DNA of 34,856 nucleotides from a virus. Below, one piece after another: positions 1 to 29,016 of the stretch. Where the stretch lies: the UHGV virus genome UHGV-0299912. One strand, written 5' to 3'. Under the pieces are notes generated by a model. The model saw only the letters and a list, made by a program, of their open reading frames with translations, searched no databases and had not been told where the DNA came from. A program made the position numbers and the translations under genes. Numbering within the stretch: position 1 is the first letter of the stretch; the number at the start of each line of letters is the position of its first letter.

Positions 1-249
1 AGTTCAATCAACGTTATGAATATAATGAAAAAAATAACTGGTATGACAAGAGGCGCGAAATATACAGATCGTTACAAAAAAATCAACTCAAAAATAAAAT
101 AAAATCTCTGCATAAACTTTATGGCTAAATGATTTCACAACAATGGAAGAGACACTTTGTTACTCACGCAATCAATCATTTCGGGCATAACAACTAGTCC
201 TAGATTATATTCGCTAGGTATACTTTATTTTTAAGCTAATACTTTAGCT

Positions 250-951
250 CTATTTCATCACTCCTTTCAGCCCGAACTTAGCTTTGATTTCTGCGATCTT
301 CGCCAGCGCCTGAACACGATTTAGAGGTCTACCGCCCATGACAGGAAGTTGTTTTACTGGTTCAGGTATCGCCTCACCACGGTTAATTCGCGCGGTCATA
401 CAAGTCAGTTCATCGGCAGCCTTGCGCCGTAATTCCGTATCAGTAAGCGCATTGGCCCGCATATTCTGGTACAGGCTAGTAACCAGCCAGTAGTGCGCGT
501 TTGATTTCCACGGATAAGACTCTGCATCCGGATACAGGCCACGCTTCCGGCAATACTCGTAAACCATATCAACCAGCTCGCTGGCGTTTGGCAGCCCGGC
601 GGTAACGGATGCTTCTTCACGGCACCATGCAACAAACTGCCCGGGTGATGGCAGGAATGGTCGATTCTGCCGACGGGCTACGCGCATTCCTGCGTTAACC
701 TGTTCCATTGTGGTGATCCCGTTTTCCCGGAAAGCCAGAACCCACTGGCGGCGGATTTCGTTCAGTTCGTTCTGGTCCCGGTTAGCCAGGCTCGCCGGGA
801 AAGTTGCCAGTAACTGGCTGAACACACCGTTGATGATCTGCGCTACCTGCTGTACCTGCGGCTTTTCGTCGTACTGTTCCGGCATGTTGTTGGCGATCCG
901 ACGCATCTGCTCACGGTCAAAGTTAATCATCTGTGCGGCGATGTTTTTCAT
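250..951 (-). CDS. P: Replication protein P (DnaB helicase loader)
   Basis: 233-aa ORF whose translation I recognise as lambda P along its whole length; its start overlaps the O stop (ATGA), the lambda O-P arrangement. Confidence 0.93.
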   Translation of the reverse strand: MKNIAAQMINFDREQMRRIANNMPEQYDEKPQVQQVAQIINGVFSQLLATFPASLANRDQNELNEIRRQWVLAFRENGITTMEQVNAGMRVARRQNRPFLPSPGQFVAWCREEASVTAGLPNASELVDMVYEYCRKRGLYPDAESYPWKSNAHYWLVTSLYQNMRANALTDTELRRKAADELTCMTARINRGEAIPEPVKQLPVMGGRPLNRVQALAKIAEIKAKFGLKGVMK

Positions 952-1877
952 AAATCCACCCCGTAAATCCAGTCAGTGTTTGTCAGGTCGAGTTTTGGTT
1001 TTCCGGCTGTCACGCCAGCCTGTTGCTTGTTACGGTTGATTTCGAGCTGGGTCCACTTGTCGCGGAGTTTAGCCGGACTCAGCACGTTACCGGACCAGAA
1101 GTTGTCCTGGCATGCCCAGCGGAACAGCACGCACATGTCGCGGTGGTTACGTCCGTCACGTTCACGCATCAGGCGGATATCATTAGCCCACCCTGCAAAA
1201 TTCGGTTTTCTGGCTGATGGCGCGATGGTCTTCACCATGTCAAACATCCACTCTGCGGCGGTCAGGTCTTCTGCTGTCCCCCACTTGCTGCCGCTCTGAA
1301 TTGCAGCATCTGGTTTCACCACAGGAAGATCGTTTTCTGGTTGGTCAGAGGATTCGCCAGAATTCTCTGACGAAAAAGGTTTTATATTGTCTTTTGTTAG
1401 TTTGTCTTTTGTGTTTACCTGATTCGGGTAAACGCCTTTACCTGATTTGGGTAAACTTTTCTTACCTGATTCAGGTAAATTTACCTCTTTCAGGTAAACT
1501 TTATTTTTCTTACCTGATTCGGGTAATGTTGCCCATTCACTGACCACATTATTAATACCGATATTCCGCCCGCTCTGAATCAAAATCCCACGCTTTACCA
1601 GAACACTTTTTGCAGCAGAACACTTGTGCGGCAATATCCCGGTCAATTCGGACAGTTGCTCGTTGCTCACCCAATCCAGTTTTTTATTAAAGCCATATGT
1701 TTTGCGCATGACAGCCAGGAAGACCAGAAGCTGGTACTGTGTTAATCCGGCCAGCATCACAGCTTCCAGCAACTCATTTGCAATGCGCGTATAACCATCA
1801 TCGAGATCTGCCACACGCGGCTCCTTTTGTGCCTCATCCGGCACTGGAAAATTGAATATCTCAGCAGTGTTTGCCAT
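948..1877 (-). CDS. O: Replication initiator protein O
   Basis: ORF-track frame 948..1967. I place the start at ATG 1877 (MANTAEIFNF...), which has a GGAAGGA Shine-Dalgarno 5 nt upstream and aligns with the lambda O N-terminus (MTNTAKILNF...). The C-terminal half (SSENSGESSDQPEND...WIYGVDL) matches lambda O; the N-terminal DNA-binding half is diverged. Contains the origin iterons. Confidence 0.88.
   Translation of the reverse strand: MANTAEIFNFPVPDEAQKEPRVADLDDGYTRIANELLEAVMLAGLTQYQLLVFLAVMRKTYGFNKKLDWVSNEQLSELTGILPHKCSAAKSVLVKRGILIQSGRNIGINNVVSEWATLPESGKKNKVYLKEVNLPESGKKSLPKSGKGVYPNQVNTKDKLTKDNIKPFSSENSGESSDQPENDLPVVKPDAAIQSGSKWGTAEDLTAAEWMFDMVKTIAPSARKPNFAGWANDIRLMRERDGRNHRDMCVLFRWACQDNFWSGNVLSPAKLRDKWTQLEINRNKQQAGVTAGKPKLDLTNTDWIYGVDL
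1415..1527. repeat. Replication origin iterons (5 copies of ~19-bp TTACCTGATTCGGGTAAAC-type repeat) inside O
   Basis: Direct repeats starting at 1415, 1438, 1462, 1481 and 1510, each an internal inverted repeat (TTACC...GGTAA), followed by an AT-rich stretch. Same position as ori-lambda within O. Confidence 0.8.
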
Positions 1878-1963
1878 AATTCCTTCCGCAATGAGTGCGT
1901 TACGATTTGCACCTGAAAGTCGGCTCTGTTCCCGCAGACCGGCTTTCGCCATTTCTGAACCTG

Positions 1964-2503
1964 TCATATTGCCCCCAGCATGGTGGTAACCATCGCCATT
2001 AATGGACCAGCCAGATCCGGGTCCACACGAAACATCGACACAATACCTTCACTCATTTCCTTCAGTTTCTGGTGGCGTGGTGCGTTGAGAATGACCGCCT
2101 GCTTTGCCTCACTGAGTTCCTTATCCATTTCAGCCAACCGAGCCATGAAGCTATCCTGCTCAACCAGGTGGCCGCGATATTCCAGCGGTAGTACCGCCAG
2201 AATTGCCGGGGTCAGTTCACGCACGTTATTTCGGTATTTTTCAGAATCGAATTTGTTATCGAGGAAGCGGAACAGCTTCTGGCGTGCACGGCTGACATCA
2301 TCAGGGAAATCGATGGTGCCGCCGCCCTGCTCCCGATACTCATTCACAATGAGTGCGGCAACAACATCCTGATTATCTGCAGCCGACCAGGCGCGAACGG
2401 CATCACGGATTTTTTCGTGGCCTGGCGCCTGTTTTGTTTGAGAATGATTTATCACCGCAGTCGGGCTAAATCCGCTAGTCTGTTGGTATGTAAGTGGTTG
2501 CAT
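1964..2503 (-). CDS. YdaT-like protein in the cII position (putative CII functional analogue)
   Basis: 179-aa ORF between cro and O. Motifs NEYREQGGG and PAILAVLPLEYRGHL resemble Rac prophage YdaT as I recall it (EEYLRQGGG, PAILAILPRELRHRL). Confidence 0.7.
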   Translation of the reverse strand: MQPLTYQQTSGFSPTAVINHSQTKQAPGHEKIRDAVRAWSAADNQDVVAALIVNEYREQGGGTIDFPDDVSRARQKLFRFLDNKFDSEKYRNNVRELTPAILAVLPLEYRGHLVEQDSFMARLAEMDKELSEAKQAVILNAPRHQKLKEMSEGIVSMFRVDPDLAGPLMAMVTTMLGAI

Positions 2504-2572
2504 AATTGACTCCTTTAGTTTGAATTGACTGTTAAGTTGATTGCTTATTGTTAAAGAGCGTGAAATGGAAAT

Positions 2573-2803
2573 TTAAGCTGCGTTCTTTTCGGTGTGTGGA
2601 AACAACTTCGGAAGATCCGGGCGAATCTGGTATGCCTTCACTACTCCACCAGTAGCCGTAACAATGCTGCCGACATGTTCAGGGGATACCTTTGCTTTGT
2701 TGTGAAGCCACTTATAGACGGCCTGCTGTGAAACTTCGCAAGCAGCGCCCAGTTTCTTTTGTGAACCAACGATATTGATCGCTGTTTTGATAGCTGGGTT
2801 CAT
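2573..2803 (-). CDS. cro: Cro-like HTH regulator (YdaS family)
   Basis: 76-aa ORF divergent from the repressor gene; GGAGG Shine-Dalgarno 5 nt upstream of the ATG; helix-turn-helix-like segment (QKKLGAACEVSQQAVYKW). Confidence 0.8.
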   Translation of the reverse strand: MNPAIKTAINIVGSQKKLGAACEVSQQAVYKWLHNKAKVSPEHVGSIVTATGGVVKAYQIRPDLPKLFPHTEKNAA

Positions 2804-2907
2804 AACAACCTCCGTGGTTAATTTGAATCAAGATTAAAACTATGGTTGTTTTTAGTCAACAACCATTTTCGTTTGATGGAATAAAACCTTGGTTGTACAT
2901 TTGGACT
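2804..2907. promoter_or_regulatory. Immunity-region operator/promoter interval (candidate PR, PRM and operator palindrome)
   Basis: 25-bp palindrome ATGGTTGTT-N7-AACAACCAT at 2842..2866. Candidate PR on the minus strand: -35 TTGACT (2859..2854), 17-bp spacer, -10 TAATCT (2836..2831). Candidate PRM on the plus strand: -35 TTGATG (2873..2878), 17-bp spacer, -10 TACATT (2896..2901), which would give a leaderless cI mRNA starting near ATG 2908. Confidence 0.5.
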
Positions 2908-3597
2908 ATGAAAACAACACTCTCAGAAAGACTTAAAGAAGCTAGATTAGCGCGAGGCCTTACACAAAAGGCGCTTGGGGATTTGGTCGGGGTTAGACAG
3001 GCTGCTATTCAGAAAATCGAAACAGGGAAAGCTAATCAAACAACTAAAATCGTGGAGATCGCGAACGCTTTGGGTGTGCGCGCAGAATGGTTATCTTCTG
3101 GCGTTGGAAATATGTCAGACAGTACAGTGCAACCAATACAATCAACTGTCAGCCATTCCAAATACTTCAAGATTGACGTTCTTGATATAGAAGTCAGTGC
3201 TGGGCCGGGAGTCATCAACCGTGAGTTTGTAGAAGTTCTACGCTCGGTTGAGTACTCGTTTGACGATGCTCGTCACATGTTCGATGGTAGGAAGGCGGAA
3301 AATATCCGCATCATTAACGTGCGTGGTGACAGCATGTCAGGAACGATCGAACCAGGTGATCTGCTGTTCGTTGATATCACAGTTAAATCTTTCGACGGTG
3401 ATGGTATCTATGCGTTTCTGTACGACGACACAGCCCATGTAAAGCGCCTGCAAATGATGAAGGATAAGCTGCTGGTCATCTCTGATAACAAAAGCTACTC
3501 ACCGTGGGACCCGATCGAGAAAGACGAGATGAACCGGGTGTTCATCTTCGGTAAGGTTATTGGGAGCATGCCGCAGACATATAGGAAGCATGGGTAG
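2908..3597 (+). CDS. cI: CI-type prophage repressor (N-terminal XRE HTH, C-terminal LexA/S24 autopeptidase domain)
   Basis: ORF-track frame 2842..3597. I prefer the internal ATG at 2908 (MKTTLSERLKEARL...) because 2842 lies inside the operator palindrome. HTH (LTQKALGDLVGVRQAAIQKIE) and S24-like C-terminal region (RGDSM...K) are present. Confidence 0.88.
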   Translation: MKTTLSERLKEARLARGLTQKALGDLVGVRQAAIQKIETGKANQTTKIVEIANALGVRAEWLSSGVGNMSDSTVQPIQSTVSHSKYFKIDVLDIEVSAGPGVINREFVEVLRSVEYSFDDARHMFDGRKAENIRIINVRGDSMSGTIEPGDLLFVDITVKSFDGDGIYAFLYDDTAHVKRLQMMKDKLLVISDNKSYSPWDPIEKDEMNRVFIFGKVIGSMPQTYRKHG

Positions 3598-3718
3598 TAC
3601 CAATTAAAAATTATCAACTGGGCATTGTGCTCATTCAGTAAAGAACTAATTCCTATCTTTGCTCTAGGTAGTAATATTAAGCCACCGCAATAATATCTTT
3701 ACCTAACGGCGTAAGAAT

Positions 3719-3745
3719 CCCGGTCACCGTGCCGGGTTTTCTTTT
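3719..3745 (+). terminator. Rho-independent terminator downstream of cI
   Basis: CCCGG-tcaccgtg-CCGGG hairpin followed by TTTTCTTTT. Confidence 0.55.
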
Positions 3746-3880
3746 GCCCTCCCCTCATCACACACACCGTTAAAAAAACCACCATAACCTCCCTTCAGTT
3801 ATCGCTATGCGATTCAAGTCACAAAATAAATCCATCCTAAATACAACCAGTTATATCTAAAAAAACCAATAAAACAACTT

Positions 3881-3908
3881 TTGTTGTTGACGACAAAACA
3901 ACTATAGT
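3881..3908 (+). promoter_or_regulatory. Candidate leftward early promoter (pL-like) with overlapping GTTGTT/AACAAC inverted repeat
   Basis: -35 TTGTTG (3881..3886), 16-bp spacer, -10 TATAGT (3903..3908). Inverted repeat GTTGTT (3883..3888) and AACAAC (3897..3902) shares its half-site with the cro-cI palindrome. Confidence 0.4.
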
Positions 3909-4197
3909 TTTAAATGAGTTCATCGCAACAACACAACGATACGGCAACCACCTGATTCACCGTTGCGATGACCGCTTAGATCCGCAGCTTGAATTTCAGC
4001 AGGCTCCGGGGAGTGCGAGGGGTGAAGCGGACGCGTGAACGTCGGTGTGACCAGCTGAAATCAACCCAACTCAACACCTCATACCTCAGTCGCTTCAACG
4101 AGGCGGCTTAGTTATGACAACCGGCGGCCATCCACCGCCTGAATACGCGCAGAAGTCTCTATATGTTCAGCAGCCCAGCTTACGGGCAGGAGTTTTT

Positions 4198-4404
4198 ATG
4201 GTTCATCAACATTACGGAACGCAGACCGTTAATCGAGGTGCGGTCATGCCAGGAATGCTGGTCAAACACAAAGATGGTACCTGGACTGCATCAGCTAATT
4301 TACGCGGACGGCTATATCTGCATCACGGCATCGAGCGCACTTATACCCGTGATTTGCTCGTGGAAGTTTTTCTCGACGGACGAGGCAACGGCCTGAATCA
4401 CTAA
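4198..4404 (+). CDS. Hypothetical small early protein (kil/cIII position upstream of gam)
   Basis: ORF-track frame 4114..4404. Internal ATG at 4198 has a strong AGGAG Shine-Dalgarno 5 nt upstream. No recognisable similarity and no Arg-rich N-like motif. Confidence 0.35.
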   Translation: MVHQHYGTQTVNRGAVMPGMLVKHKDGTWTASANLRGRLYLHHGIERTYTRDLLVEVFLDGRGNGLNH

Positions 4405-4479
4405 TCCCCTTTCCTGTTTTCCTAATCAGCCTGGCATTTCGCGGGCGATATTTTCACAGCCATTTTCAGGAGTTCAGCC

Positions 4480-4776
4480 ATGAACGCTTATTACATTCAG
4501 GATCGTCTTGAGGCTCAGAGCTGGGCGCGTCACTACCAGCAGATTGCCCGTGAAGAGAAAGAGGCAGAACTGGCAGACGACATGGAAAAAGGTCTTCCAC
4601 AGCACCTGTTTGAATCACTCTGCATCGATCATTTGCAACGCCACGGGGCCAGCAAAAAAGCCATTACCCGTGCGTTTGATGACGATGTTGAGTTTCAGGA
4701 GCGCATGGCAGAACACATCCGGTACATGGTTGAAACCATTGCTCACCACCAGGTTGATATTGATTCAGAGGTATAA
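4480..4776 (+). CDS. gam: Gam, host RecBCD inhibitor (short GamS form)
   Basis: 98-aa translation ([21 protein letters not shown]...[10 protein letters not shown]) recognised as lambda GamS; AGGAG Shine-Dalgarno upstream. Confidence 0.93.
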
Positions 4777-4781
4777 AACGA

Positions 4782-5567
4782 ATGAGTACAGCACTCGCAA
4801 CGCTGGCAGGGAAGCTGGCTGAACGTGTCGGCATGGATTCTGTCGACCCACAGGAACTGATCACCACTCTTCGCCAGACGGCATTTAAAGGTGATGCCAG
4901 CGATGCGCAGTTCATCGCATTGTTGATCGTCGCCAACCAGTACGGCCTTAATCCGTGGACGAAAGAAATTTACGCCTTCCCTGATAAGCAGAACGGCATC
5001 GTTCCGGTGGTGGGCGTTGATGGCTGGTCCCGCATCATCAATGAAAACCAGCAGTTTGATGGCATGGACTTTGAGCAGGACAATGAATCCTGTACATGCC
5101 GGATTTACCGCAAGGACCGTAATCATCCGATCTGCGTTACCGAATGGATGGATGAATGCCGCCGCGAACCATTCAAAACCCGCGAAGGCAGAGAAATCAC
5201 GGGGCCGTGGCAGTCGCATCCCAAACGGATGTTACGGCATAAAGCCATGATTCAGTGTGCCCGTCTCGCCTTCGGATTTGCTGGTATCTATGACAAGGAT
5301 GAAGCCGAGCGCATTGTCGAAAATACCGCATACACTGCAGAACGTCAGCCGGAACGCGACATCACTCCGGTTAACGATGAAACCATGCAGGAGATTAACA
5401 CTCTGCTGATTGCCCTGGACAAAACATGGGATGACGACTTATTGCCGCTCTGTTCCCAGATATTTCGCCGCGACATTCGCGCATCGTCAGAACTGACACA
5501 GGCCGAAGCAGTGAAAGCTCTTGGATTCCTGAAACAGAAAGCCACTGAGCAGAAGGTGGCAGCATGA
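4782..5567 (+). CDS. bet: Bet (Red-beta) single-strand annealing recombinase
   Basis: 261-aa translation recognised as lambda Bet ([20 protein letters not shown]...). Confidence 0.93.
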
Positions 5568-6244
5568 CACCGGACATTATCCTACAGCGTACCGGGATCG
5601 ACGTGAGAGCTGTCGAACAGGGGGATGATGCATGGCACAAATTACGGCTCGGCGTCATCACCGCTTCAGAAGTTCACAACGTGATAGCAAAGCCCCGCTC
5701 AGGAAAGAAGTGGCCTGACATGAAAATGTCCTACTTCCACACCCTGCTGGCTGAGGTTTGCACCGGTGTGGCTCCGGAAGTTAATGCTAAGGCGCTGGCG
5801 TGGGGAAAACAGTACGAGAACGACGCCAGAACCCTGTTTGAATTCACTTCCGGCGTGAATGTTACTGAATCCCCGATCATCTATCGCGACGAAAGTATGC
5901 GCACCGCCTGCTCTCCCGATGGTTTATGCAGTGACGGCAATGGCCTTGAGCTGAAATGCCCGTTTACCTCCCGGGATTTCATGAAGTTCCGGCTCGGTGG
6001 TTTCGAGGCCATAAAGTCGGCTTACATGGCCCAGGTGCAGTACAGCATGTGGGTAACGCGAAAATATGCCTGGTACTTTGCCAACTATGACCCACGAATG
6101 AAGCGTGAAGGCCTGCATTATGTCGTGGTTGAGCGGGATGAAAAGTACATGGCGAGTTTTGACGAGATGGTGCCGGAGTTCATCGAAAAAATGGACGAAG
6201 CACTGGCTGAAATTGGTTTTGTATTTGGAGAGCAATGGCGATGA
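5564..6244 (+). CDS. exo: Exo (Red-alpha) 5'-3' exonuclease
   Basis: 226-aa translation recognised as lambda Exo ([40 protein letters not shown]...); overlaps bet stop. Confidence 0.93.
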
Positions 6245-6423
6245 CCCATCCTCACGATAATATCCGGGTAGGCGCGATCACTTTCGTCTACTCCGTTACA
6301 AAGCGAGGCTGGGTATTTCACGGTCTTTCTGTTATCCGAAATCCGCTGAAAGCCCAGCGGCTGGCTGAGGAGATAAATAATAAACGGGGGGCGGTATGCA
6401 CAAAGCATCTCCTGTTGAGTTAA
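6235..6423 (+). CDS. Small exo-xis-region hypothetical protein (lambda orf60a-like position)
   Basis: 62-aa ORF overlapping the exo stop, same strand as the early-left operon. Confidence 0.55.
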
Positions 6424-6458
6424 GAACGAGTATTGATTTGGCACATAGCCTTGCTCAA

Positions 6459-6463
6459 ATTGG
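6459..6463. repeat. Target-site duplication ATTGG, left copy
   Basis: Identical 5-bp ATTGG immediately flanks both IS ends. Confidence 0.8.
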
Positions 6464-8471
<2,008 letters not shown>

Positions 8472-8554
8472 TTAGCCACATCCCTTTCACAAAAGCTGGA
8501 AATGATGGTGGCGAAAGCAGAAGCAGATGAGAGACCAGGTATGACAACCACTGA

Positions 8555-8836
8555 ATGCATTTTTCTGGCAGCGGGCTTCATATTCTGTGTGCTTATGCTT
8601 GCCGACATGGGGCTTGTTCAGTGACACCTCAGCAAGAAAACGCCCTTCGCAGCATTGCCCGTCAGGCTAATTCTGAAATCAAAAAAGTCAGACAGCAGTT
8701 TCCGGATAAAAACGTCAATGACATTTGCCGTAGCGTACTGAAGAAGCACCGCGAAACGGTAACGCTGAAGGGATTCACACCGACTCATTTAAGCCTGGCA
8801 ATCGGCATGTTAAACGGCGTCTTTAAGGAACGATGA
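8555..8836 (+). CDS. Hypothetical exo-xis-region protein
   Basis: 93-aa ORF. An alternative GTG start at 8621 overlaps the stop of the IS-split gene (VTPQQENALRSIARQ...), which would give ~71 aa. No recognisable similarity. Confidence 0.4.
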   Translation: MHFSGSGLHILCAYACRHGACSVTPQQENALRSIARQANSEIKKVRQQFPDKNVNDICRSVLKKHRETVTLKGFTPTHLSLAIGMLNGVFKER

Positions 8837-8934
8837 ACATGAAAAGCAAAATTATCAGGGAGCTACAGGCTCCTTTTTTATTGTTCGCATTCACCCTCAA
8901 GCGTATTAACCAACAGTTCAGGGATTAATGAAAG

Positions 8935-9156
8935 ATGGCAGACATCATTGATTCAGCATCAGAAATAGAAGAATTACAGCGCAACACAGCAATAAAAATG
9001 CGCCGCCTGAACTACCTGGCTGTATCTGCCACTCATTGTTGTGAGTGTGGCGATCCGATAGATGAACGAAGACGCCTGGCCGTTCAGGGTTGTCGGACTT
9101 GCGCCAGTTGCCAGCAAGATCTGGAGCTTATCCGCAAACAAAGGGGGATTAAGTGA
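8935..9156 (+). CDS. TraR/DksA-family C4 zinc-finger protein (lambda orf73-like)
   Basis: 73 aa with a CxxC-N17-CxxC motif (CCECGD...CRTCASC), typical of TraR-like RNA-polymerase secondary-channel binders found in the lambda exo-xis region. Confidence 0.75.
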   Translation: MADIIDSASEIEELQRNTAIKMRRLNYLAVSATHCCECGDPIDERRRLAVQGCRTCASCQQDLELIRKQRGIK

Positions 9157-9488
9157 TGGCTAACCTGCAACTTGCTGTTAAAAGTGAATACTTCGATGCC
9201 ATGATTCGCGGAGAGAAAACGGAAGAGTATCGCTTGTGTAATGACTACTGGAATAAGCGAATTATGTTCCGGGAATATGACCGCCTGATTATCACAAAGG
9301 GATATCCGAAGCGCGACGATTCCAGTCGCAGAATTGATGTTCCGTATGACGGATATGAAGTGAAGACAATCACACATCCGCACTTTGGCGATAAACCGGT
9401 AAAGGTGTTCGCTATAAAGGTGAATATCACCACTGAATATCAATCCGCACAACACAAGGTCAAGAATGTTCAGAGTGATTTACCCTAA
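9153..9488 (+). CDS. ASCH-domain protein
   Basis: 111 aa. Contains the GxKxxExR motif (IRGEKTEEYR) characteristic of ASCH/PUA-like domains. Overlaps the upstream stop (ATGA). Confidence 0.6.
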   Translation: MMANLQLAVKSEYFDAMIRGEKTEEYRLCNDYWNKRIMFREYDRLIITKGYPKRDDSSRRIDVPYDGYEVKTITHPHFGDKPVKVFAIKVNITTEYQSAQHKVKNVQSDLP

Positions 9489-9705
9489 CACCTGGTACGT
9501 CGACCACCACGGCACTCCCTGCAAAATCCTGCGTTCTACCCACAACAAAGTTCACTACATCCGAAAAGGCAGAACATGTATCGCCAGCATGTTCCGCTTT
9601 AATCATGACTTTGAACCTGTGAGTAAAGTGGAATCAGAGCGGATAGCCGAAGAGATCGATACAGCAGAACACATTAAGAAGTTACGTGCCATACGCAGGA
9701 AATAG
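9466..9705 (+). CDS. Hypothetical protein
   Basis: 79-aa ORF overlapping the previous gene in the same operon; basic C-terminus; no recognisable similarity. Confidence 0.45.
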   Translation: MFRVIYPNTWYVDHHGTPCKILRSTHNKVHYIRKGRTCIASMFRFNHDFEPVSKVESERIAEEIDTAEHIKKLRAIRRK

Positions 9706-9844
9706 AAAAATTGATAAATTCAATACTGCATTTCTCAGCATTAAATTTATCTCTATGACCAGTCAAGAGATGTACCTGCCATGAGCTTAATATCATGTCA
9801 GATATATCGGTCACAAACTCCCTCAGTAGCTAAGAGGAGGACAA

Positions 9845-10081
9845 ATGTCTCGACTAATCACTTTACAGGACTGGGCTAAAGAAGAATTTGGGGACTTAGC
9901 ACCAAGTGAGCGAGTTCTGAAAAAATACGCGCAAGGGAAAATGATGGCCCCACCCGCTATAAAAGTTGGTCGCTACTGGATGATTGACCGAAATTCCCGT
10001 TTTGTAGGAACGCTTGCAGAACCGCAACTCCCAATAAACGCAAACCCAAAACTCCAACGGATAATCGCTGATGGCTGCTAG
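9845..10081 (+). CDS. xis: Excisionase
   Basis: 78-aa ORF immediately upstream of and overlapping int; strong AAGAGGAGG Shine-Dalgarno; sequence recognised as an E. coli prophage excisionase type. Confidence 0.8.
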   Translation: MSRLITLQDWAKEEFGDLAPSERVLKKYAQGKMMAPPAIKVGRYWMIDRNSRFVGTLAEPQLPINANPKLQRIIADGC

Positions 10082-11213
10082 ACCCCGATCTCACAAAATC
10101 TCTATACCCAATTTATATTGCAAATTAGATAAGCGAACCGGAAAGGTATATTGGCAATACAAACATCCACTATCCGGTCGTTTTCATAGCTTAGGAACTG
10201 ATGAGAATGAAGCAAAACAAGTTGCTACTGAAGCAAATACCATTATTGCTGAACAACGTACCCGACAAATATTAAGCGTCAATGAGCGTCTGGAAAGAAT
10301 GAAAGGCAGGCGCTCAGACATTACGGTGACAGAATGGCTTGATAAATATATTTCTATCCAGGAGGACAGGCTGCAACATAATGAACTAAGACCCAACTCC
10401 TATCGGCAAAAAGGCAAACCCATTCGTCTTTTCCGTGAGCATTGTGGAATGCAACACCTCAAGGATATTACCGCACTTGATATTGCCGAAATGATTGATG
10501 CTGTAAAGGCTGAAGGTCATAACAGGATGGCGCAAGTCGTGAGAATGGTGTTAATCGACGTCTTCAAAGAAGCACAACACGCAGGACATGTTCCGCCAGG
10601 ATTTAACCCAGCGCAGGCAACAAAACAACCGCGAAATCGAGTAAACCGCCAAAGATTATCACTGCCCGAATGGCAGGCAATATTTGACAGCGTAAGCAGA
10701 CGGCAGCCCTATTTAAAATGCGGGATGCTACTTGCTCTTGTCACTGGACAACGTTTAGGCGATATCTGCAATTTGAAATTCTCTGATATCTGGGACGACA
10801 TGTTGCACATTACTCAGGAAAAAACCGGTTCAAAACTTGCTATTCCGCTTAACCTGAAATGCGATGCTCTGAATATTACCCTTCGTGAAGTTATATCTCA
10901 GTGCAGGGATGCTGTTGTTAGTAAATATCTGGTCCATTACCGTCACACAACCTCTCAAGCAAACAGAGGAGACCAGGTTTCTGCGAATACTCTGACAACG
11001 GCTTTTAAAAAGGCCAGGGAAAAATGTGGCATAAAATGGGAGCAAGGAACTGCGCCCACATTTCATGAGCAGCGATCTCTGTCAGAACGGTTATATCGGG
11101 AACAGGGTCTGGATACGCAAAAGTTGTTAGGCCATAAATCCAGAAAAATGACCGACCGATACAATGATGATCGTGGTAAAGACTGGATTATCGTAGATAT
11201 CAAAACAGCATAG
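10071..11213 (+). CDS. int: Tyrosine site-specific integrase
   Basis: 380-aa ORF with a tyrosine-recombinase C-terminal catalytic region (R...HxxR...Y context: LGHKSRKMTDRY). Adjacent to xis and the icd 3' fragment. Confidence 0.93.
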   Translation: MAARPRSHKISIPNLYCKLDKRTGKVYWQYKHPLSGRFHSLGTDENEAKQVATEANTIIAEQRTRQILSVNERLERMKGRRSDITVTEWLDKYISIQEDRLQHNELRPNSYRQKGKPIRLFREHCGMQHLKDITALDIAEMIDAVKAEGHNRMAQVVRMVLIDVFKEAQHAGHVPPGFNPAQATKQPRNRVNRQRLSLPEWQAIFDSVSRRQPYLKCGMLLALVTGQRLGDICNLKFSDIWDDMLHITQEKTGSKLAIPLNLKCDALNITLREVISQCRDAVVSKYLVHYRHTTSQANRGDQVSANTLTTAFKKAREKCGIKWEQGTAPTFHEQRSLSERLYREQGLDTQKLLGHKSRKMTDRYNDDRGKDWIIVDIKTA

Positions 11214-11223
11214 AAAACAGCCA

Positions 11224-11260
11224 GTTTTGGGGAAGGGTTTTGGGGAAAGTTTTGGGGAAG
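11224..11260. repeat. Three tandem 12-bp direct repeats GTTTTGGGGAAG / GTTTTGGGGAAA / GTTTTGGGGAAG
   Basis: Copies at 11224..11235, 11237..11248 and 11249..11260, 11 bp after the int stop and between int and the icd fragment. Candidate arm-type Int binding sites. Confidence 0.7.
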
Positions 11261-11280
11261 ATTTTACATCATCATAAAAC

Positions 11281-11303
11281 AACGGGCGTGTTATACGCCC
11301 GTT
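11281..11303. terminator. Bidirectional hairpin terminator between int and the icd fragment
   Basis: Perfect 9-bp stem AACGGGCGT / ACGCCCGTT with loop GTTAT. T-rich 3' flank on the plus strand (TTAAATATTT) and TTTT on the minus strand. Confidence 0.6.
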
Positions 11304-11326
11304 TAAATATTTAACACATGTAGTGA

Positions 11327-11494
11327 TTACATATTCTTGATGATCGCATCACCAAACTCTGAACATTTCAGCAGTTTAGCGCCTTCCATCAGACGTTCGA
11401 AGTCATAGGTTACGGTCTTGGCATTGATTGCGCCTTCCATACCTTTAACAATCAGGTCTGCGGCTTCGGTCCAACCCATGTGGCGCAGCAGCAT
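11327..11494 (-). pseudogene. icd: 3'-terminal fragment of isocitrate dehydrogenase gene icd (phage-borne att homology, e14 type)
   Basis: Minus-strand translation ...[55 protein letters not shown] is the Icd C-terminus as I recall it. Homology stops at ~11494, where the sitC sequence begins; there is no icd 5' region. Confidence 0.85.
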
Positions 11495-11496
11495 AT

Positions 11497-12180
11497 ATGC
11501 TGGGGCTTCCGTTTTCTCTGGGAGCCTTCTTTTCCGGCGGACTGGCTGCGGGCAGCATGCTGTTTCTTAACCAACGCACCCGCTTAAAAGAAGATGCCAT
11601 CATCGGCCTGATCTTCTCGTCCTTTTTTGGCCTGGGGCTGTTTATGGTGTCATTGAACCCGACATCTGTGAACATTCAGACCATCGTCCTGGGCAATATT
11701 CTGGCAATCGATCCGGCGGATATCCTGCAACTCACTATCATTGGCATTCTCTCGATCATCGTGCTTTTTTTCAAATGGAAAGATCTTATGGTGACCTTTT
11801 TCGACGAGAATCACGCCCGTGCTATTGGATTGCATCCGGGCAGATTAAAACTCCTCTTCTTCACCCTGCTGTCGGTTTCGACCGTTGCGGCGCTGCAAAC
11901 GGTTGGTGCCTTTCTGGTGATCTGTCTGGTGGTGACTCCCGGAGCAACAGCATGGTTGTTAACCGATCGTTTTCCCCGCCTGCTCATGATTGCTGTAACT
12001 ATTGGCAGTGTAACCAGTTTCCTCGGCGCGTGGGTCAGTTACTTTCTGGACGGCGCGACAGGTGGAATCATCGTGGTGGCGCAGACACTGCTGTTTCTTT
12101 TAGCATTTGTCTTTGCGCCCACCCATGGGCTTTTGGCAAATCGTCGGCGTGCGCATAAGGCGCTGGAGGATCGCTCATGA
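11497..12180 (+). pseudogene. sitC: 5'-truncated sitC (Mn/Fe ABC transporter permease)
   Basis: 227-aa frame matching the SitC/MntC/YfeC permease family from about residue 60 onward. The N-terminal ~60 codons, sitA and sitB are absent. Overlaps the sitD start (ATGA). Confidence 0.85.
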
Positions 12181-13034
12181 TGGCATTATTACTGGAGCCA
12201 CTGCAGTTCACCTTTATGAGTCACGCACTGCTGATTTCACTGGTAGTTTCCATACCCTGTGCGCTGCTGTCGGTCTTTCTGGTCCTGAAAGGCTGGGCAC
12301 TGATGGGTGACGCGATGAGTCATGCGGTTTTTCCTGGCATCGTGCTTGCCTGGATTCTGGGGTTACCTTTGGCTACAGGGGCATTCGTCGCCGGAGTATT
12401 CTGCGCGGTGGCGACGGGATACCTGAAAGACAACAGCCGAATCAAGCAAGATACAGTGATGGGGATTGTTTTTTCTGGCATGTTTGCCGCAGGTCTGATT
12501 TTGTATATTGCAGTCAAACCAGACGTACATCTTGACCATATTCTTTTCGGCGACATGCTCGGGATAACCATCGGCGATATAATCCAGACGGTGATTATTG
12601 CTGGGCTGGTTACACTTGTTATTAGCGTAAAATGGCGAGATTTTTTGCTGTTCAGCTTTGATTATCAACAGGCGCAGGTAAGCGGTTTGCATACGAGATG
12701 GCTGCATTATGGGCTGCTGTGCATGGTCTCTCTGACCATTGTGGCGACGCTGAAAGCGGTAGGTATTATTCTCTCCATTTCTCTGCTCATTGCGCCTGGC
12801 GCCATTGCGGTACTCCTGACACAACGCTTTTATATTGCGCTCCTACTGGCGACTGGCATATCGGTAATAGTGTCAATGATCGGTGTCTGGCTGTCCTTTT
12901 TTATCGACAGCGCACCAGCTCCGACGATTGTCGTCTTATTCGCGGTCGCGTTCATCATGACGTTTACCGTTACCAGCATCAACGCACGCACAAAGGGAAA
13001 CGCCCATACACAGGATCTGTTATCACCCAATTAG
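12177..13034 (+). CDS. sitD: SitD (Mn/Fe ABC transporter permease)
   Basis: 285-aa polytopic membrane protein of the ABC-3 permease family, immediately downstream of sitC. Confidence 0.88.
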   Translation: MMALLLEPLQFTFMSHALLISLVVSIPCALLSVFLVLKGWALMGDAMSHAVFPGIVLAWILGLPLATGAFVAGVFCAVATGYLKDNSRIKQDTVMGIVFSGMFAAGLILYIAVKPDVHLDHILFGDMLGITIGDIIQTVIIAGLVTLVISVKWRDFLLFSFDYQQAQVSGLHTRWLHYGLLCMVSLTIVATLKAVGIILSISLLIAPGAIAVLLTQRFYIALLLATGISVIVSMIGVWLSFFIDSAPAPTIVVLFAVAFIMTFTVTSINARTKGNAHTQDLLSPN

Positions 13035-13696
13035 CACAACATCCGAGGACATCATCGTCCGCCAGCCTACAGCAGTCCGGAAAGTCATGGAAGGTCGTTG
13101 GGAGGAGGTACGAATTCTATCATGCAAAAAATACGTAAAATCGATAATAGCTGGAAATAATTCAATACATGCACTCTCGAAAGTGCATCAGCCAACCGTG
13201 GCACGTTTTTGCATACAACGAGCCACGGTTCTCTTTACGATTTATAGCTGTATTGGTGAACTATGAGCAATTTTCGCGTTATATTCCAATCTTTAATCTC
13301 TTAACGGAACAAGTTGCATGCATGACTATATCAAGACAACTTATAACTACCAAAACATTTGCTTTGCAAGCAAAAACGGGGACCATTAACTCTAAGAAAA
13401 ATCCGATCTATTGTTAGGATTATTAAAGTTACTTAACAGTATTCCGAAATGAAAATACAAAGTAAGCTGATTGTCTTATTAAACATTATCATTGCATTTA
13501 TACTATTTGAGCTTTTAGATCAAAAATTCGGTTTGAGTACATTATTTTAAAGCAAGATAAATAATATCGGGCACTCTAGTTTTTATAATTAACAATTAAA
13601 CGCCCATAAAATGTTATTTACGTTTCTTCGCTATTGTAATATCTTAATATAGTGGTTTACGCCACTCTACTTTCATCATATTTTGTACGTTTATGT

Positions 13697-13725
13697 AATC
13701 GCCATGAAACTCTTTCATGGCGATT
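13697..13725. other. Perfect 13-bp stem, 3-nt loop hairpin (AATCGCCATGAAA-CTC-TTTCATGGCGATT) in the AT-rich spacer
   Basis: Seen directly; the plus-strand 3' flank is T-rich (TCTTATTCTT). Possible terminator or regulatory structure. Confidence 0.4.
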
Positions 13726-13814
13726 TCTTATTCTTAATCCAAGAACATAGTCCCTATCTATAGCAAAATTACTTTTGAACAAAAGAATAACGTATTTAGG
13801 TAATCATTACGAAT

Positions 13815-14396
13815 TTACCCTATAGGTGCTACTGGCCACTCAATATCCGGTACTACTGATGTATCAACACGGTTCAGCAACACCCGATACTTTTTCCAGG
13901 CTTCCAGCAACAAGGTTTCTTCCTCCGTTGCGATCTCCAGATCTACAGCATCCTGAAGCGGCGCTATATGCTCACTGGCTACCTGCATCAGGCTGTTTTT
14001 TGTTTCTTCCGCCTCCCGGATCCGGAACAGTTTTTCTGCTTCCGTATCCTTCACCCAGGCTGTACCGTTCCACTTCTGAAACTCCCCTTCCGGGGATAAC
14101 CAGGTGACATTTTCCGGTAATGAGCCGAGTTCAGAAATAAATAACGCGTCGCCGGAAGCCACGTCATAGACCGTTTTTCCCCGATGGTCTTCAACGAGAT
14201 GCCACGATGCCTCATCACTGTTGAAAACAGCCACAAAGCCAGCCGGAATATCTGGCGGTGCAATATCGGTACTGTTTGCAGGCAGACCTGTATGAGGCGG
14301 AATATATGCGTCACCTTCACCAATAAATTCATTAGTTCCGGCCAGCAGGTTATAAATTTTTATGGTCCGTGCTTGTTCACTCATTCTGAATGCCAT
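13815..14396 (-). CDS. tfa: Tail fiber assembly protein
   Basis: 193-aa ORF directly downstream of stf, with TAATG stop/start overlap; recognised as the lambda/Rac Tfa family. Confidence 0.85.
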
Positions 14397-17347
14397 TATG
14401 CGAGCCTCACAATATAGTTAAATGCGATGTTTTTGACGGTGTTTTCCGCGTTACCAGCAGCGTTAACGGTGATGGTGTGTCCATGTGAACCAATCGCAAC
14501 AGAGTGCGTATGAGCACCAATACCGACAGTATGCGCGTGTGCACCCGCAGATGCTGCTGTGCCGGACAGTGAGTGTGTATGGTTTCCTTCTGAAGATGAT
14601 TTACCTACCCATTGGGAGGTGCCACTGGTTAATGAGCCACTGATACCAACCTGATTAGTCCCGCTAACTTGAGTACTCCCTGCCGGAAACATTCCAGTAG
14701 GTTGACTCCCGCTATTCGTTCTGGGCCCAGTCTGACTATGTTGGTGGGCCCCAGCTGAACTTGTAGAGCCGCTCAGACTGTGCGTATGCGCCCCGGTGTT
14801 ATTCGTGGATTTAGTGCCGTAATCAAACGACGATGTGGTTTTCGTCCCCAAATCCGTACTGGATGCGCTGGCGCTGTGGGTGTGCGATTTTATGCCGTCC
14901 TGTTCCTGAGACAATACGGCCCGACCACTGGCAGGTTTGCCCTTAATCGTCCAGCCACGCATATCAGGGATCACGCCTGACGGATAAGCGGCTGCAAGTT
15001 TCGGGTATGCAGATTTGTCAAAAGTCTGCCCCTGCATCAGGGCATAACCAGACGGAACGGTATCTGATGGCCACGGGATTGGTGCACCGACTGGATAAAA
15101 CTCTGCAGGAGGATGAGCCGAGGTGTAAAGCTGCGCCCACGGCGACCAGTTTGCGTCGATCGTATCCCGTCGTGAACGAATAAATGCCGGAGCATGAGCA
15201 CCGCTTGTACCACTCCAGCCGATGAGTAACTCACCTTCGCCAACGGCTGTCATCCCTTTCAGGTGAATGATATTTCCATACGCTGTTGGATATCCGTTGT
15301 TATACACCTCGTATAACTCAAGACCTGTTGCCCCCTGCGTATTGTCTGTCAGCGCGGTTACCCGACCTTTTGAAGCCAGATTAACTGATGATACTGCTGT
15401 TCCACCTGACGGTAATGCCCCGATCTCTGATGCCGTTGGCTTATTTCTGGAGTTATAGTCCCTTCGCCAGCCAGGTGAATAATCTGTTCCGTGATTAATA
15501 TAGGTAAACTGGGCGTTAGTTGTTCCGCCACCAGTGGAGGTGGTCGGTGTGGTAATGCGGATCGTCATCGCTGACTTTATCCCCATTACTTCAATGACGG
15601 CTCCTGCGAGATGAATATTACCGCAGCCAGTATCAGTAATGATTTTATTATTGCCATAAGACCAGGAACCCTTGCACATCCAGTATGGATGGTTAAATGC
15701 TCCCTGAGAATCCAGCCACTCGATAAACTGTGCAGTCGTCCAGTTTCCTGTTGTTGTGCTTACTGACCCACCGAAGGCACGGCAGGCACCAATATTTTTC
15801 GTAAAGGTGTCTTTGCCAGGGATATCCGCACCGTTCTGATCTTTCTGCAGACGTTTCTCAGCATTGTCATTGGCTGCTTTTACTGCCTTTGGCGTTGCCG
15901 CCAGCGTTTCAGACGTGCTGTTGGTCGCACTGCTGAGCTGTACTATCCCCTTTTTCGTCGTGCTCGCATCCTCAAGCGCCACGGCGGATGCAATATCCTC
16001 TGCCCGTTTTGCTGCTGTCTCGGCGCGCGTTGCCGCGGATTCCGCCGTACTTTTGCTCTGAGCTGCCGCCGTCGCACTACCAGCTGCCTCTGTCGCCTTC
16101 GTGGATGCCGTCGTGGCGCTGCCTTTCGCTGCTGATGCCTGTCTGCTCGCCTCATCTTTTGAAGCAGACGCAGATGATGCCGATGACGCCGCCGAACTGG
16201 CGGACGATGCAGCTGCCATTTTTGAGGATTCTGCACTGGTTTCCGAGGCTTTCGCGTTCGTTTCGGATGTCTTCGCTGCGGATGCAGACCTCGCTGCTGC
16301 GCTGGCCTGTTCAGCGGCTTCGCCAGCCTTCGTTGTGGCTGTTGAAGCGGACAATGCAGCGCTTTCTGCCGATTTTCCGGCGGCAGTGGCTCTGGCTGAG
16401 GCCTGCCCGGCACTTGTTGACGCGGCACTGGCAGATGATGCAGCCGCTGTTTTTGAGCCTGCCGCAGCTGAGGCACTCTGTCCCGCTGCCGTTTCAGAAG
16501 ACCTGGCGTTCGTCTCGGACGTTTTTGCCGCCTTCGCGGAATTTGCTGCCGCCGTTGCCGAGGAAGCGGAACTACTGGCGCTCGAGGATGCGTTCGTTTC
16601 TGATGATTTCGCTGCCTCTTTTGAGGCCGCCGCATCCCGGGCTGAGGTGGCAGCTTCTGACGCTTTCGTGGTCGCGGTGGATGCAGAAGTGGCTGCTGAT
16701 TGTTGTGACGCTGCGGCATTCGTTTCTGACGTTTTCGCCGCACCGGCACTGGTAGCCGCCGCGCTTTTTGAGGACTCTGCAGCGGCAGCACTTTTTGATG
16801 CTTCAGTGGCCTTTGCTGATGCCGTTCCTGCGCTGGAAGACGCTGACTGAGCCGACGACACGGCCTGTCCGGCTGACGTGCTGGCTGCGCGTGCTGAGTC
16901 TGCAGCATCAGTCGCATGGGTTGCCGCCTCACGGGCTGATGTGCTGGCATCGCCGGCTGACTTCTTCGCGGCTGCCGTGTTCTGTGCCACTGCGGACGCG
17001 TTACGCGCCACCTCTTCCACCATCACTTCAAAACGGCGCAGTGCCTCCGGACGGGCATCATCCTCCGTCATGGCACCGAGAAAATCATTCAGCGTACCGG
17101 GTTGAGAATCTTCATACACGGTGATAGTCCCGGCATGTGACGGCGGGAATCCCTCCACCAACAGAATAACGCTGTACTGACCATACTCAACGTCCATACT
17201 GTAACGCCCGGCTTCATCCGGATTTTCTGAGGCCAGCGTGTTCACCACCACCGTGGTACTGTTACGTTTTGCTTTCAGCTGGATTGTGCAGTTCTGTACC
17301 GGTTTTCCTGTGCCGTCTTTCAGTACACCAGAAATCTTTACTGCCAT
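14396..17347 (-). CDS. stf: Side tail fiber protein (StfR-like)
   Basis: ORF-track frame 14396..17353. Start placed at ATG 17347 ([18 protein letters not shown]...). Long Ala/Ser/Thr-rich repeat region, and a C-terminal region with HTHS/GAHAH repeats ending [11 protein letters not shown], as I recall for Rac StfR. Confidence 0.88.
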
Positions 17348-17353
17348 ATTCAC

Positions 17354-17385
17354 CCCACAAAAAAGCCCGCCTGAACCGGCGGGCT
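17354..17385 (-). terminator. Rho-independent terminator downstream of lom
   Basis: Minus strand reads AGCCCGCC-GGTTCA-GGCGGGCT followed by TTTTTGTGGG. Confidence 0.7.
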
Positions 17386-17411
17386 GTCATAACACTGTGT
17401 TACCTGGCTAA

Positions 17412-18011
17412 TCAGAATTTATAACCGACACCCACGATGAAACCGTCAGTGCGCCAGTCGCCACTGCCGGAGCCTTCATAAGCAATATCAATGGCCACGG
17501 ATTCGGTCGGGTTAAACTGCACGCCAGCTCCCCACGCCAGAGACGTGTTGCTGTGGCGACCGTCATCACTTCCGGTCAGCACATCGTGCGTTTTCCCCTT
17601 GTTGTCAGTTACGCGGAGATAATCCCCGGAGAAAGTCGACACACGGCTGTAAGCCACACCCGCCATCGCATACGCGCTGAACCATTCATTCACGCGCACA
17701 GACGGCCCCGCCATTACGCTGAACCAGCGGTTACGAACGGAATCTTCATGCCAGCGGGTATCGCTGTAACGGGTAAGCTGGCGATTCTTGTCTCCTGCAT
17801 AGCTGAAAGACGTCACCATCCCCAGTGTGTCCGTAAACTCATAACGGTATTTCACGTTAATCCCGTTCAGATCATCGCTGCCGGGAACGTTCGTCGAGAC
17901 ATGAAGATACCCCGCGCTCAGCGTGGACTGATGTTCAGACGCCCATGCAGGCGCACCGGATACGGCCAGACAAATGGCTGCGGACAAAATGGCGGCATAA
18001 AGTTTACGCAT
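17412..18011 (-). CDS. lom: Lom outer-membrane protein (Ail/Lom family)
   Basis: ORF-track frame 17412..18050. Start placed at ATG 18011 ([24 protein letters not shown], a signal peptide) with a GAGAGG Shine-Dalgarno; beta-barrel protein ending in F. Confidence 0.88.
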
Positions 18012-18034
18012 AATTACCTCTCGCTTTTCTGCAA

Positions 18035-18060
18035 TAAAAAAAGGCGTCATTTCTGACGCC
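18035..18060 (-). terminator. Rho-independent terminator downstream of J
   Basis: Minus strand reads GGCGTCA-GAAA-TGACGCC followed by TTTTTTTATTG. Confidence 0.7.
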
Positions 18061-18078
18061 CGTTATGGGTTATAAAAT

Positions 18079-21480
<3,402 letters not shown>

Positions 21481-21537
21481 TCACGCTCCAGAAACGACAA
21501 AACCGCCCGCAGGCGGTTTCACATAAAACATTTTGCA

Positions 21538-22209
21538 TCAGCGACCAATCACCACAACCTGACCACCATCCCCTTCGTCTGCCGTGCTGATCTCCTGAGA
21601 AACCACACGTGACCCCACGCGCATTTCCCCGTACAGAACAGGCAGAACATTACCCTGGGCAACCATGTTATCCAGTGACGAGAAATACGTGTTCTGTTTG
21701 CCGTTATCTGTACTGGCTGCCGTGGGCGTCCTGGCTTTCGGTGCCAGCATCTGAGCCACACCGCCGAGCACCATACTGGCACCGAGAGAAAACAGAATGC
21801 CGGTCATACCACCGGCACCAATGGCAGCCCCCCATGCTGCAAGGGTGGCTCCGGCGGTAAAGAATGATCCGGCAATGGCGGCTGCTCCCAGGACAATCTG
21901 GAATACACCACCTGACTTGGCCCCGGCGACTCTGGGAACAATATGAATCACAGCGCCGTCAGGTAGAGCCTCATGTAACTGCGCCGTTAATCCGGACGTG
22001 CTGACATCCTGTCCGGCAATACGCACCTGATACCAGCCGTCGCTCAGTTTCTGACGAAACGCAGGGAGCTGTGTGGCCAGCGCCCGGATGGCTTCGGCCC
22101 CCGTTTTCACACGAAGGTCGATGCGGCGGCCAAATCGTTGCAAATCCCCGTAAAGGCAGATGCGTGCCATGCCCGGTGACGCCAGAGGGAGTGTGTGCGT
22201 CGCTGCCAT
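21538..22209 (-). CDS. I: Tail assembly protein I
   Basis: 223-aa ORF recognised as lambda I (MAATHTLPLASPGMARICLYGDLQRF...VVVIGR). Confidence 0.9.
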   Translation of the reverse strand: MAATHTLPLASPGMARICLYGDLQRFGRRIDLRVKTGAEAIRALATQLPAFRQKLSDGWYQVRIAGQDVSTSGLTAQLHEALPDGAVIHIVPRVAGAKSGGVFQIVLGAAAIAGSFFTAGATLAAWGAAIGAGGMTGILFSLGASMVLGGVAQMLAPKARTPTAASTDNGKQNTYFSSLDNMVAQGNVLPVLYGEMRVGSRVVSQEISTADEGDGGQVVVIGR

Positions 22210-22850: not shown

Positions 22851-22854
22851 GGGA

Positions 22855-23553: not shown

Positions 23554-23882
23554 CAGTTCACCACCTGTTCAAACTCTGCGCTGAACTCAACACGCAACAT
23601 ACTGACCCGCGACGACCATTTTGCGCAGGTCACCTTTATCTGCCGGTAGCCATAAGGCGGCGTCCACAGAAAGGCCTTCCAGCCCCCGTGCTCAGCCAGA
23701 AACGACTCCAGCGCCGCGGCCTCCCAACGGGGAACAGAAAGCGTCACGCTGTACGTTTTCAGGTCAGTGTTCAGCCCGGCAGGCGCTCGCTGGGAATAGC
23801 CATCACCAAAGCGCACCTTTCTTACGGAAGGGGCCGAAGCCACATCCATACCGGGTTTCACTTTCCAGCGGAAGGTTTTCAT
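23553..23882 (-). CDS. M: Minor tail protein M
   Basis: 109-aa ORF, same length and position as lambda M; overlaps the H stop. Confidence 0.92.
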   Translation of the reverse strand: MKTFRWKVKPGMDVASAPSVRKVRFGDGYSQRAPAGLNTDLKTYSVTLSVPRWEAAALESFLAEHGGWKAFLWTPPYGYRQIKVTCAKWSSRVSMLRVEFSAEFEQVVN

Positions 23883-27271: not shown

Positions 27272-27286
27272 CGCTGACTCTCCGGA

Positions 27287-28027: not shown

Positions 28028-28034
28028 AGCGTCC

Positions 28035-29005: not shown

Positions 29006-29016
29006 ACATCCCCCTT

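Follow-up and report, generated by a model that had tools for sequence, protein, structure and literature searches.

A probable integrase-promoted attachment-site deletion into the sit operon of a phage 21-like genome

Introduction

The UHGV virus genome UHGV-0299912 (34,856 nucleotides, the whole of which is called the window below) carries an integrase gene (int) beside a 3' copy of icd that is joined to no icd 5' sequence, which raises the question of how this attachment (att) region came about and whether it can still serve for integration. The insertion of phage 21 and e14 in icd has been known since 1989-1997 and the module itself is textbook, the icd 3' copy normally restoring icd once the phage has inserted. 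An earlier note made from this DNA had read the locus as an e14-type, icd-targeting module in a non-integrated, attP-like arrangement. The comparisons presented here identify the window as a phage 21-like (Jouyvirus) lambdoid genome with vegetative gene order, in which the att core is fused to the middle of sitC. The fusion was most probably made by integrase (Int) and would add a new natural case to the known Int-promoted att deletions.

Loss of the P arm and truncation of the sit operon

The icd 3' replacement copy (11327-11491, minus strand) comprises 165 bp, i.e., the last 54 codons and the stop, and is convergent with int. Aligned to the icd/attL, icdC/attR, and attP copies of strain 2A, K-12, and phage 2E9, it was identical to the attL copy of strain 2A. 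The absence of icd 5' sequence beside int, as claimed in the earlier note, was borne out, with the icd homology ending at 11491/11492 and running straight into codon 59 of sitC. Across this junction the window reads ...CATGTGGCGCAGCAG|CATATATGCTGGGG... and is sitC from 11492 on; past the same point, the attP of 2E9 and the attR of strains SCU-111 and 2A read ...CAGTATATAAAAAC..., and uninterrupted sitC at that point is ...GTGTTGCGGGGGCATATATGCTGGGG....

The resulting remnant sitC' (11497-12180, plus strand) is a 5'-truncated Mn/Fe ABC permease gene encoding 227 of 285 amino acids, with a Pfam ABC-3 match that begins at profile position 52, and matches the 3' portion of the 2A and SCU-111 sitC genes with 100% identity. 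The following sitD (12177-13034, plus strand) is complete (285 amino acids), matching Pfam ABC-3 over its full length and bearing the SitD annotation in relatives. Complete sitABCD operons are present in phage 21, 2E9, and the prophages of 2A and SCU-111; neither the window nor contig L007, a second deletion-bearing sequence described below, has the complete set. Compared with a 2A-type parent, the window lacks 2,822 bp that hold the P arm, a 0.9-kb spacer, sitA, sitB, and the 5' end of sitC (58 codons). The "spacer" that the earlier note had placed between the tail genes and att consists of sitD and the truncated sitC.

The P' arm is retained as three tandem arm-type dodecamers (GTTTTGGGGAAG/A) located by pattern search at 11224-11260 (plus strand). 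Their positions match in L001, L007, and L027, and the phage 21 annotation lists these dodecamers as attP subsites P1P2P3 with the consensus YYTTCCCCAAAA. A fourth dodecamer (ATTTTGGGGAAA) is conserved at +132 relative to the start of the core in phage 21, 2E9, 2A, and SCU-111 (sequences L027, L001, L004, and L002) and is absent from the window and L007. The first to fourth dodecamers span 397 bp in phage 21, in agreement with a minimal attP for this phage that is reportedly 366-418 bp long with the outermost dodecamers as its bounds. The att of the window is not an intact attP: the P arm needed for a complete attP is gone, including the outer (fourth) dodecamer expected ~110 bp past the overlap, and "attP-like" was an overstatement.

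In the icd prophages of SCU-111 and 2A, the order is ymgL - icd 3' pseudogene (attR) - sitABCD - tfa ... A ... Q ... P ... xis - int - icd (attL), with the int side and the sit/tail side at opposite prophage ends. The SCU-111 prophage is ~48.4 kb long. In these prophages and in the NC-SV-type icd prophages of E. coli (NC101; PMC12803456), ~48 kb separate the int end from the sit end, attL and attR are intact, and sitABCD is complete. The tail-att-int arrangement of the window is not possible for one prophage integrated at icd.

The crossover core

In both strain 2A and K-12 e14, several positions distinguish the attL copy of the 165 bp from the attR copy. The last of these differences is G/A in CATGTGG vs. 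CATATGG, beyond which both copies read TGGCGCAGCA; past this block attL continues into TCATCTC (host icd) and attR into GTATATA (21-type) or TTAGTTA (e14). The limits of the attL/attR polymorphism therefore place the exchange within the 10-bp block TGGCGCAGCA, at 11481-11490 of the window. The sequence CATATGG-CGCAGCA-GCATATA contains the dyad ATATG-N9-CATAT centered on CGCAGCA, a geometry that would fit two core-type sites around a 7-bp overlap. Based on this inverted repeat, the proposed core-type Int site C is CATGTGG (11477-11483, plus strand). The proposed overlap O is CGCAGCA (11484-11490, plus strand), which lies inside TGGCGCAGCA, would have been kept from the phage att, and is the segment at whose edges the junction classes described below switch. 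Alignments of the window, attP, attR, and intact sitC define the right half-site C', GCATATA (11491-11497, plus strand), as a hybrid, as the 2A parent-type attR has a T where the window carries the C of sitC.

Phage 21 and 2E9 have CGTAACA in place of CGCAGCA, and the objection that this allele contradicts the placement of O was considered. It was resolved by finding CGTAACA contiguous with icd 5' sequence, as full-length icd, in 1,060 of 5,426 complete E. coli genomes, and therefore phage and host overlap alleles can match. The overlap is dimorphic (CGCAGCA vs. CGTAACA, synonymous codons) in phages and in full-length icd alike. This dimorphism may define att compatibility classes. Identity within the overlap is a general requirement (PMC2817482).

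Two junction classes at the edges of the overlap

The window junction at 11490|11492 coincides with the right edge of the crossover block delimited by attL and attR, and both of its sides are 100% identical to the icd prophage of strain 2A (1636/1636 and 1538/1538 bases). A look-up of the exact 227-amino-acid truncated SitC' protein revealed a second junction class in L007 (ERZ27313971, a 25.5-kb contig), L008 (ERZ27314014), and L014 (Logan ERR3277287), all with the order int - icd' - sitC' - sitD - tail fiber. Their junction, ...CATATGG|TGCGGGGGCATATATG, involves the same site pair in the same register as the window, but the 7 nucleotides are TGCGGGG of sitC, not CGCAGCA of att. The switch in this class is consequently at the left edge of the proposed overlap, 7 nucleotides left of the window switch, and falls between two adjacent mismatches with zero microhomology. 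The sit side of L007 is identical to 2E9 and 18 single-nucleotide polymorphisms from the window, and its int side has 8 differences from the window, 4 of them within 22 nucleotides of position 11480. Given these different phage backgrounds, the two junctions therefore represent separate events. A spacing of 7 nucleotides between two such classes would be the prediction for an integrase of the lambda type that makes staggered cuts at a mismatched overlap.

A BLAST search with positions 10000-13800 as query against the same 5,426 complete E. coli genomes, 50,697 phage records, and 72,556 plasmids gave no record across the junction. Neither int-icd'-sitC' nor the attR-type icdC-sitC' was present in these genomes or phage records. 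Searches of contigs for the L007-class junction strings likewise gave no match.

Contigs L011, L012, L015, and L016, produced by different assemblers, begin 1-2 nucleotides upstream of the sitC' ATG, at CAT|ATATG. These starts suggest a recurrent branch in the assembly graph; they fit neither junction class and may reflect an allelic single-nucleotide polymorphism between two sit copies.

Secondary-site use in cbtA

The predicted 55-amino-acid icd' open reading frame was tried as a junction-specific marker and rejected, as the same product turns up at ordinary attR sites, in e14-like elements of Salmonella, and in lysogens at cbtA. The same look-up revealed two genomes, L018 and L020, that have int-icd' fused to cbtA, a toxin gene of CP4-type islands. 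Both are lysogens of the 21-type Int, one near cadC and the other near yeeX, with the junction at ~9996-10003 in L018 and the same junction in L020. The empty cbtA site (L029, ~2737) reads ...TGAGCAGCAGCATATTGAGG and has the 12-mer GCAGCAGCATAT in common with the att core, corresponding to 6/7 positions of O and 6/7 of C'. Use of this secondary site supports the core model proposed above. Together, the two junction classes and the cbtA lysogens would fix, without experiment, where the 7-bp overlap and the half-sites of the core lie for the 21-type Int.

The lysogens also bear on the argument that an icd' not joined to icd 5' sequence signals a non-integrated phage. As int-icd' is joined to cbtA in the integrated L018 and L020, this argument is unsafe when used alone, and an icd fragment beside int but unattached to icd is in itself no proof of a free genome.

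A further observation concerns the Salmonella-like contigs L017, L019, L021, and L026 (SopE, ArtAB-type toxin), which hold two icd 3' fragments around an e14-like remnant (pin, mcrA-like HNH). Another element is joined in these contigs at GCAGCAGCATTTTTAAC, which points to stacked elements at the icd site.

An Int-promoted deletion and its alternatives

The anatomy of the locus is probably the outcome of an Int-promoted att deletion resembling that of lambda b2, after which the phage should not integrate and the sit function would be lost. In the proposed course, Int would pair attP with an attB-like secondary site in the sitC of the same phage, 2.8 kb off and in direct orientation (attP core CATGTGG-CGCAGCA-GTATATA with sitC site CGGGTGT-TGCGGGG-GCATATA). 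The interval with the P arm and its fourth dodecamer, the spacer, sitA, sitB, and 58 codons of sitC would then leave as a circle. As the overlaps mismatch at 4 of 7 positions, the product would be heteroduplex over O and replication would segregate it into two forms, one keeping the phage O with the switch at 11490|11492 as in the window, and the other keeping the sitC O with the switch 7 nucleotides to the left as in L007, L008, and L014. Segregation of this kind from heteroduplex products is established for the secondary sites of lambda. The expected result is a delta-O-P' att as in lambda b2, with P' arm and core but no P arm, and such a deletion phage would grow lytically, would not integrate at icd unaided, and would carry the sit transporter as dead cargo. 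Sequence comparison shows the anatomy, the exact junctions, the independence of the backgrounds, and the missing P arm; from these we infer that Int was the catalyst, that the route was intramolecular, and that integration is defective.

Several points weigh against this explanation. The sitC site matches the att core at 7/7 positions of C', 3/7 of O, and 4/7 of C, and this total of 14/21 is unexceptional, with 9 sites as high in the 37.7-kb reconstructed parent; the overall similarity was consequently dropped as evidence and the argument rests on the positions of the junctions. The perfect C' half-site is the only feature of the sitC site that stands out, and with identity at only 3/7 positions of O the reaction should be rare. 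Searches with exact and degenerate strings of the window junction matched nothing in genome, viral, and metagenome contig collections. A natural C variant, GCATATA instead of GTATATA, occurs in some attP/attR copies (L022-L025), and from a parent of this type the window junction would lie in 7 bp of microhomology that slippage could have used; the identity of the window to 2A, which has T at this position, argues against such a parent. Finally, the window begins just beyond P and ends inside A, so that both of its ends lie within phage genes, which limits the case for a free genome. The mosaic structure of the window, considered next, also counts against a free genome.

The arrangement could instead be chromosomal, as the earlier note allowed when it named a free or circular genome, a tandem prophage junction, and a rearrangement as the possible scenarios; these were the right set, and the window alone cannot tell them apart. 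The chemistry would be unchanged but intermolecular: a second 21-like phage would have used its intact attP to insert at the secondary site in the sitC of a resident 21-like prophage whose primary icd site was already taken, and the window would cross the int-proximal junction of the incoming phage and continue with the sitC'-sitD-tail genes of the resident. Such a nested or tandem polylysogen would have lost no DNA, the P arm and sitAB lying at the other junction, and the local sequence would equal that observed. Int does form secondary-site lysogens, as in cbtA, the combination of a 2A-like early region carrying IS100 with a late region 100% identical to SCU-111 would fit two different phages, and the insertion sequence (IS) suggests residence as a prophage. 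Nevertheless, no nested arrangement was present in the complete E. coli genomes, and the short-read contigs L007, L008, and L014 cross the junction unbroken although the sitC 3' part and P' would each have two neighbors, where assembly should break. These two observations favor the free phage. In addition, Int would not be expressed by a homoimmune superinfecting phage, and this nested origin is considered unlikely, though with a real share of the probability.

The other explanations carry considerably less weight. A deletion independent of Int, by replication slippage or Red/RecA homeologous exchange with TGGCGCAGCAG(Y)ATATA and TGTTGCGGGGGCATATA serving as imperfect direct repeats, would draw on the G(Y)ATATA common to both sites, on the 7-bp microhomology given a C-variant parent, and on the Bet, Exo, and Gam encoded by the phage. 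It would make the endpoint at the edge of the icd homology a coincidence, and require two independent events at the two edges of one 7-nucleotide segment that is both the mapped crossover zone and the dyad center. Slippage also cannot extend from the two adjacent mismatches that enclose the L007-class switch, where there is no microhomology, and the 2A flanks of the window leave only 1 nucleotide of microhomology given the T of 2A vs. the C of the window; illegitimate deletion is accordingly rated improbable. A chimeric assembly that fused the opposite ends of a single integrated prophage, one at int and the other at sit, might be suspected, as the exact window junction had no second instance in the searched collections and the public contigs L011, L012, L015, and L016 break 1-2 nucleotides from it. 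However, the 7 nucleotides shared by the ends are too few to make an assembler misjoin them, the junction keeps the exact register of the core, and the sister class appears in three independent assemblies from different pipelines, making an artifact very improbable. Least credible of all is the plain reading of an intact e14-type attP in a free phage genome, which accounts for the vegetative gene order and the icd' adjoining int, but conflicts with an Int that is 60% identical to IntE vs. 98.9% to the phage 21 Int, with the missing P arm and fourth dodecamer, and with sitC being cut at the core. Two further candidates were rejected, namely a specialized transducing phage of the lambda-gal type, in which the neighbor of att would be icd 5' sequence and not sitC, and an Int-mediated chromosomal inversion in a 2A-like genome, which would have destroyed icd.

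A wider version of the Int-promoted deletion, in which sitC holds a hot spot that the phage 21 Int (Int21) uses repeatedly and gut E. coli icd prophages regularly shed sit-less, non-integrating variants, is put forward as a tentative possibility and is itself doubtful. If true, these variants would be natural b2-like escape phages capable of lytic growth only, and the junction classes would give the exact cleavage positions of Int21 from sequence alone. The CGCAGCA/CGTAACA dimorphism within icd would then represent two phage-host att compatibility classes.

Module layout, gene order, and mosaicism

The icd-targeting module of Int, Xis, and att with its replacement icd 3' end is supported by the alignments. 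The xis gene (9845-10081, plus strand) encodes a 78-amino-acid excisionase with a Pfam PF07825 Exc match and overlaps the start of int; the corresponding gene carries the excisionase annotation in phage 21, 2E9, and strain 2A. The int gene (10071-11213, plus strand) encodes a 380-amino-acid tyrosine integrase of the phage 21 type, with the Pfam domains Arm-DNA-bind_1 (lambda-type arm-binding) and Phage_integrase. Between the P' dodecamers and the icd copy, a hairpin terminator flanked by an A run and a T run (11276-11310, the hairpin itself at ~11281-11303, no strand assigned; AACGGGCG...CGCCCGTT) lies at a position equivalent to the terminator annotated in phage 21, and probably serves both convergent transcripts.

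The first late genes past the sit remnant are tfa and stf for tail fiber assembly and side tail fiber (13815-17353, minus strand; PHROG 105 and PHROG 295). Based on PHROGs, Pfam, and annotated relatives, the order along the plus strand is P, O, cII-like, cro, cI, gam, bet, exo, [IS100], xis, int, and icd', followed by sitC', sitD, tfa, stf, lom, J ... H, V, E, C/Nu3, B, W, and A (C-terminal part). Read from the other strand this order is therefore the lambda vegetative map, confirming what the earlier note had stated for the minus strand. In Rfam searches no small RNA was found in the att region. The sole Rfam match in the window was IS009 (RF02111) at 13855-14053 (minus strand), with 221 bits vs. 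a gathering score of 117, and it falls in the 3' part of the tail fiber assembly gene.

The genome is mosaic. The head and tail genes (21363-34856, 13.5 kb) are 100.000% identical to the SCU-111 prophage, the early region (1-11494) is 99.95% identical to strain 2A and only 95-97% identical to SCU-111, and the stf/J region (~14400-21800) is 98-99% identical to both. An IS21-family element (IS100-like, 6469-8416; istA 6550-7572, istB 7569-8351) occupies the early-left operon between exo and xis and is absent from the otherwise 99.95% identical 2A prophage. Icd prophages of the type found in uropathogenic E. coli 536 also have IS100 in this region. It may be speculated that IS100 would raise a 48.4-kb genome to ~50.3 kb, near the lambda packaging limit, and that the 2.8-kb deletion would bring it to ~47.5 kb. 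Packaging relief is not required for the deletion, as the L007 class is without the IS.

The two halves of the icd prophage in strain 2A (NZ_CP146939.1; L003, L004) are on opposite strands and separated by ~394 kb, which implies that a large inversion of the chromosome has one of its ends within the prophage, between A/cos and iss.

Comparison with known systems

The nearest relatives of the window are the NC-SV-type icd prophages and the icd prophages of 2A and SCU-111, with 99.95-100% identity over the early, sit, and late regions; all of these are integrated. Among phages, phage 21 (genus Jouyvirus) is the closest model for the module. Its Int is 98.9% identical to that of the window over 380 amino acids (M61865.1, OL657228.1), and the xis overlapping int, the three P' dodecamers, the terminator, and the 165-bp icd 3' copy follow in the same order and spacing. 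The sit genes are placed between att and the tail fibers in both. Past int, the annotation of phage 21 lists a 165-bp ICDH pseudogene, a few small genes, complete sitABCD, and side tail fiber genes, a layout common to phage 2E9 and many gut coliphages. The window differs from phage 21 in the absence of the P arm with its fourth dodecamer, of the hypothetical genes, of sitA and sitB, and of the first 58 codons of sitC, in its overlap allele (CGCAGCA vs. CGTAACA in phage 21), and in the IS100-like element upstream of xis.

The likeness to e14, a cryptic prophage of E. coli K-12 (intE/xisE, icd/icdC), proposed in the earlier note holds in part. The attB, the logic of the 165-bp icd 3' duplication, the crossover zone TGGCGCAGCA, and an int convergent with icd are common to both. 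The integrase is only 60% identical to IntE, the P-side core half-site is GYATATA in the 21-type vs. TTAGTTA in e14, and lit, ymfD, and ymfE stand between icd and intE in e14 only. The integrases of phage 21 and e14 are reportedly not interchangeable.

The closest precedents for the event itself are lambda b2 and the other Int-promoted att deletions of lambda, together with the secondary attachment sites of that phage. As in lambda b2, one end of the deletion is at the point of att crossover, and the other is at a putative core-like site in an interval of non-essential DNA that separates the tail genes from att; the P' arm is kept and the P arm is not. As with heterologous overlaps in lambda, products are found with the 7 nucleotides of either parent. 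In contrast to lambda b2, a different integrase and core sequence are involved, the evidence consists of natural sequence data and not of laboratory selection, and the role of Int is a presumed one. A further difference is that the deletion ruins a virulence-associated cargo operon, sitABCD. The window would thus represent a natural, sequence-level case of an integrase-made deletion by which a virulence-associated iron/manganese transporter is gone and a temperate phage is probably unable to lysogenize.

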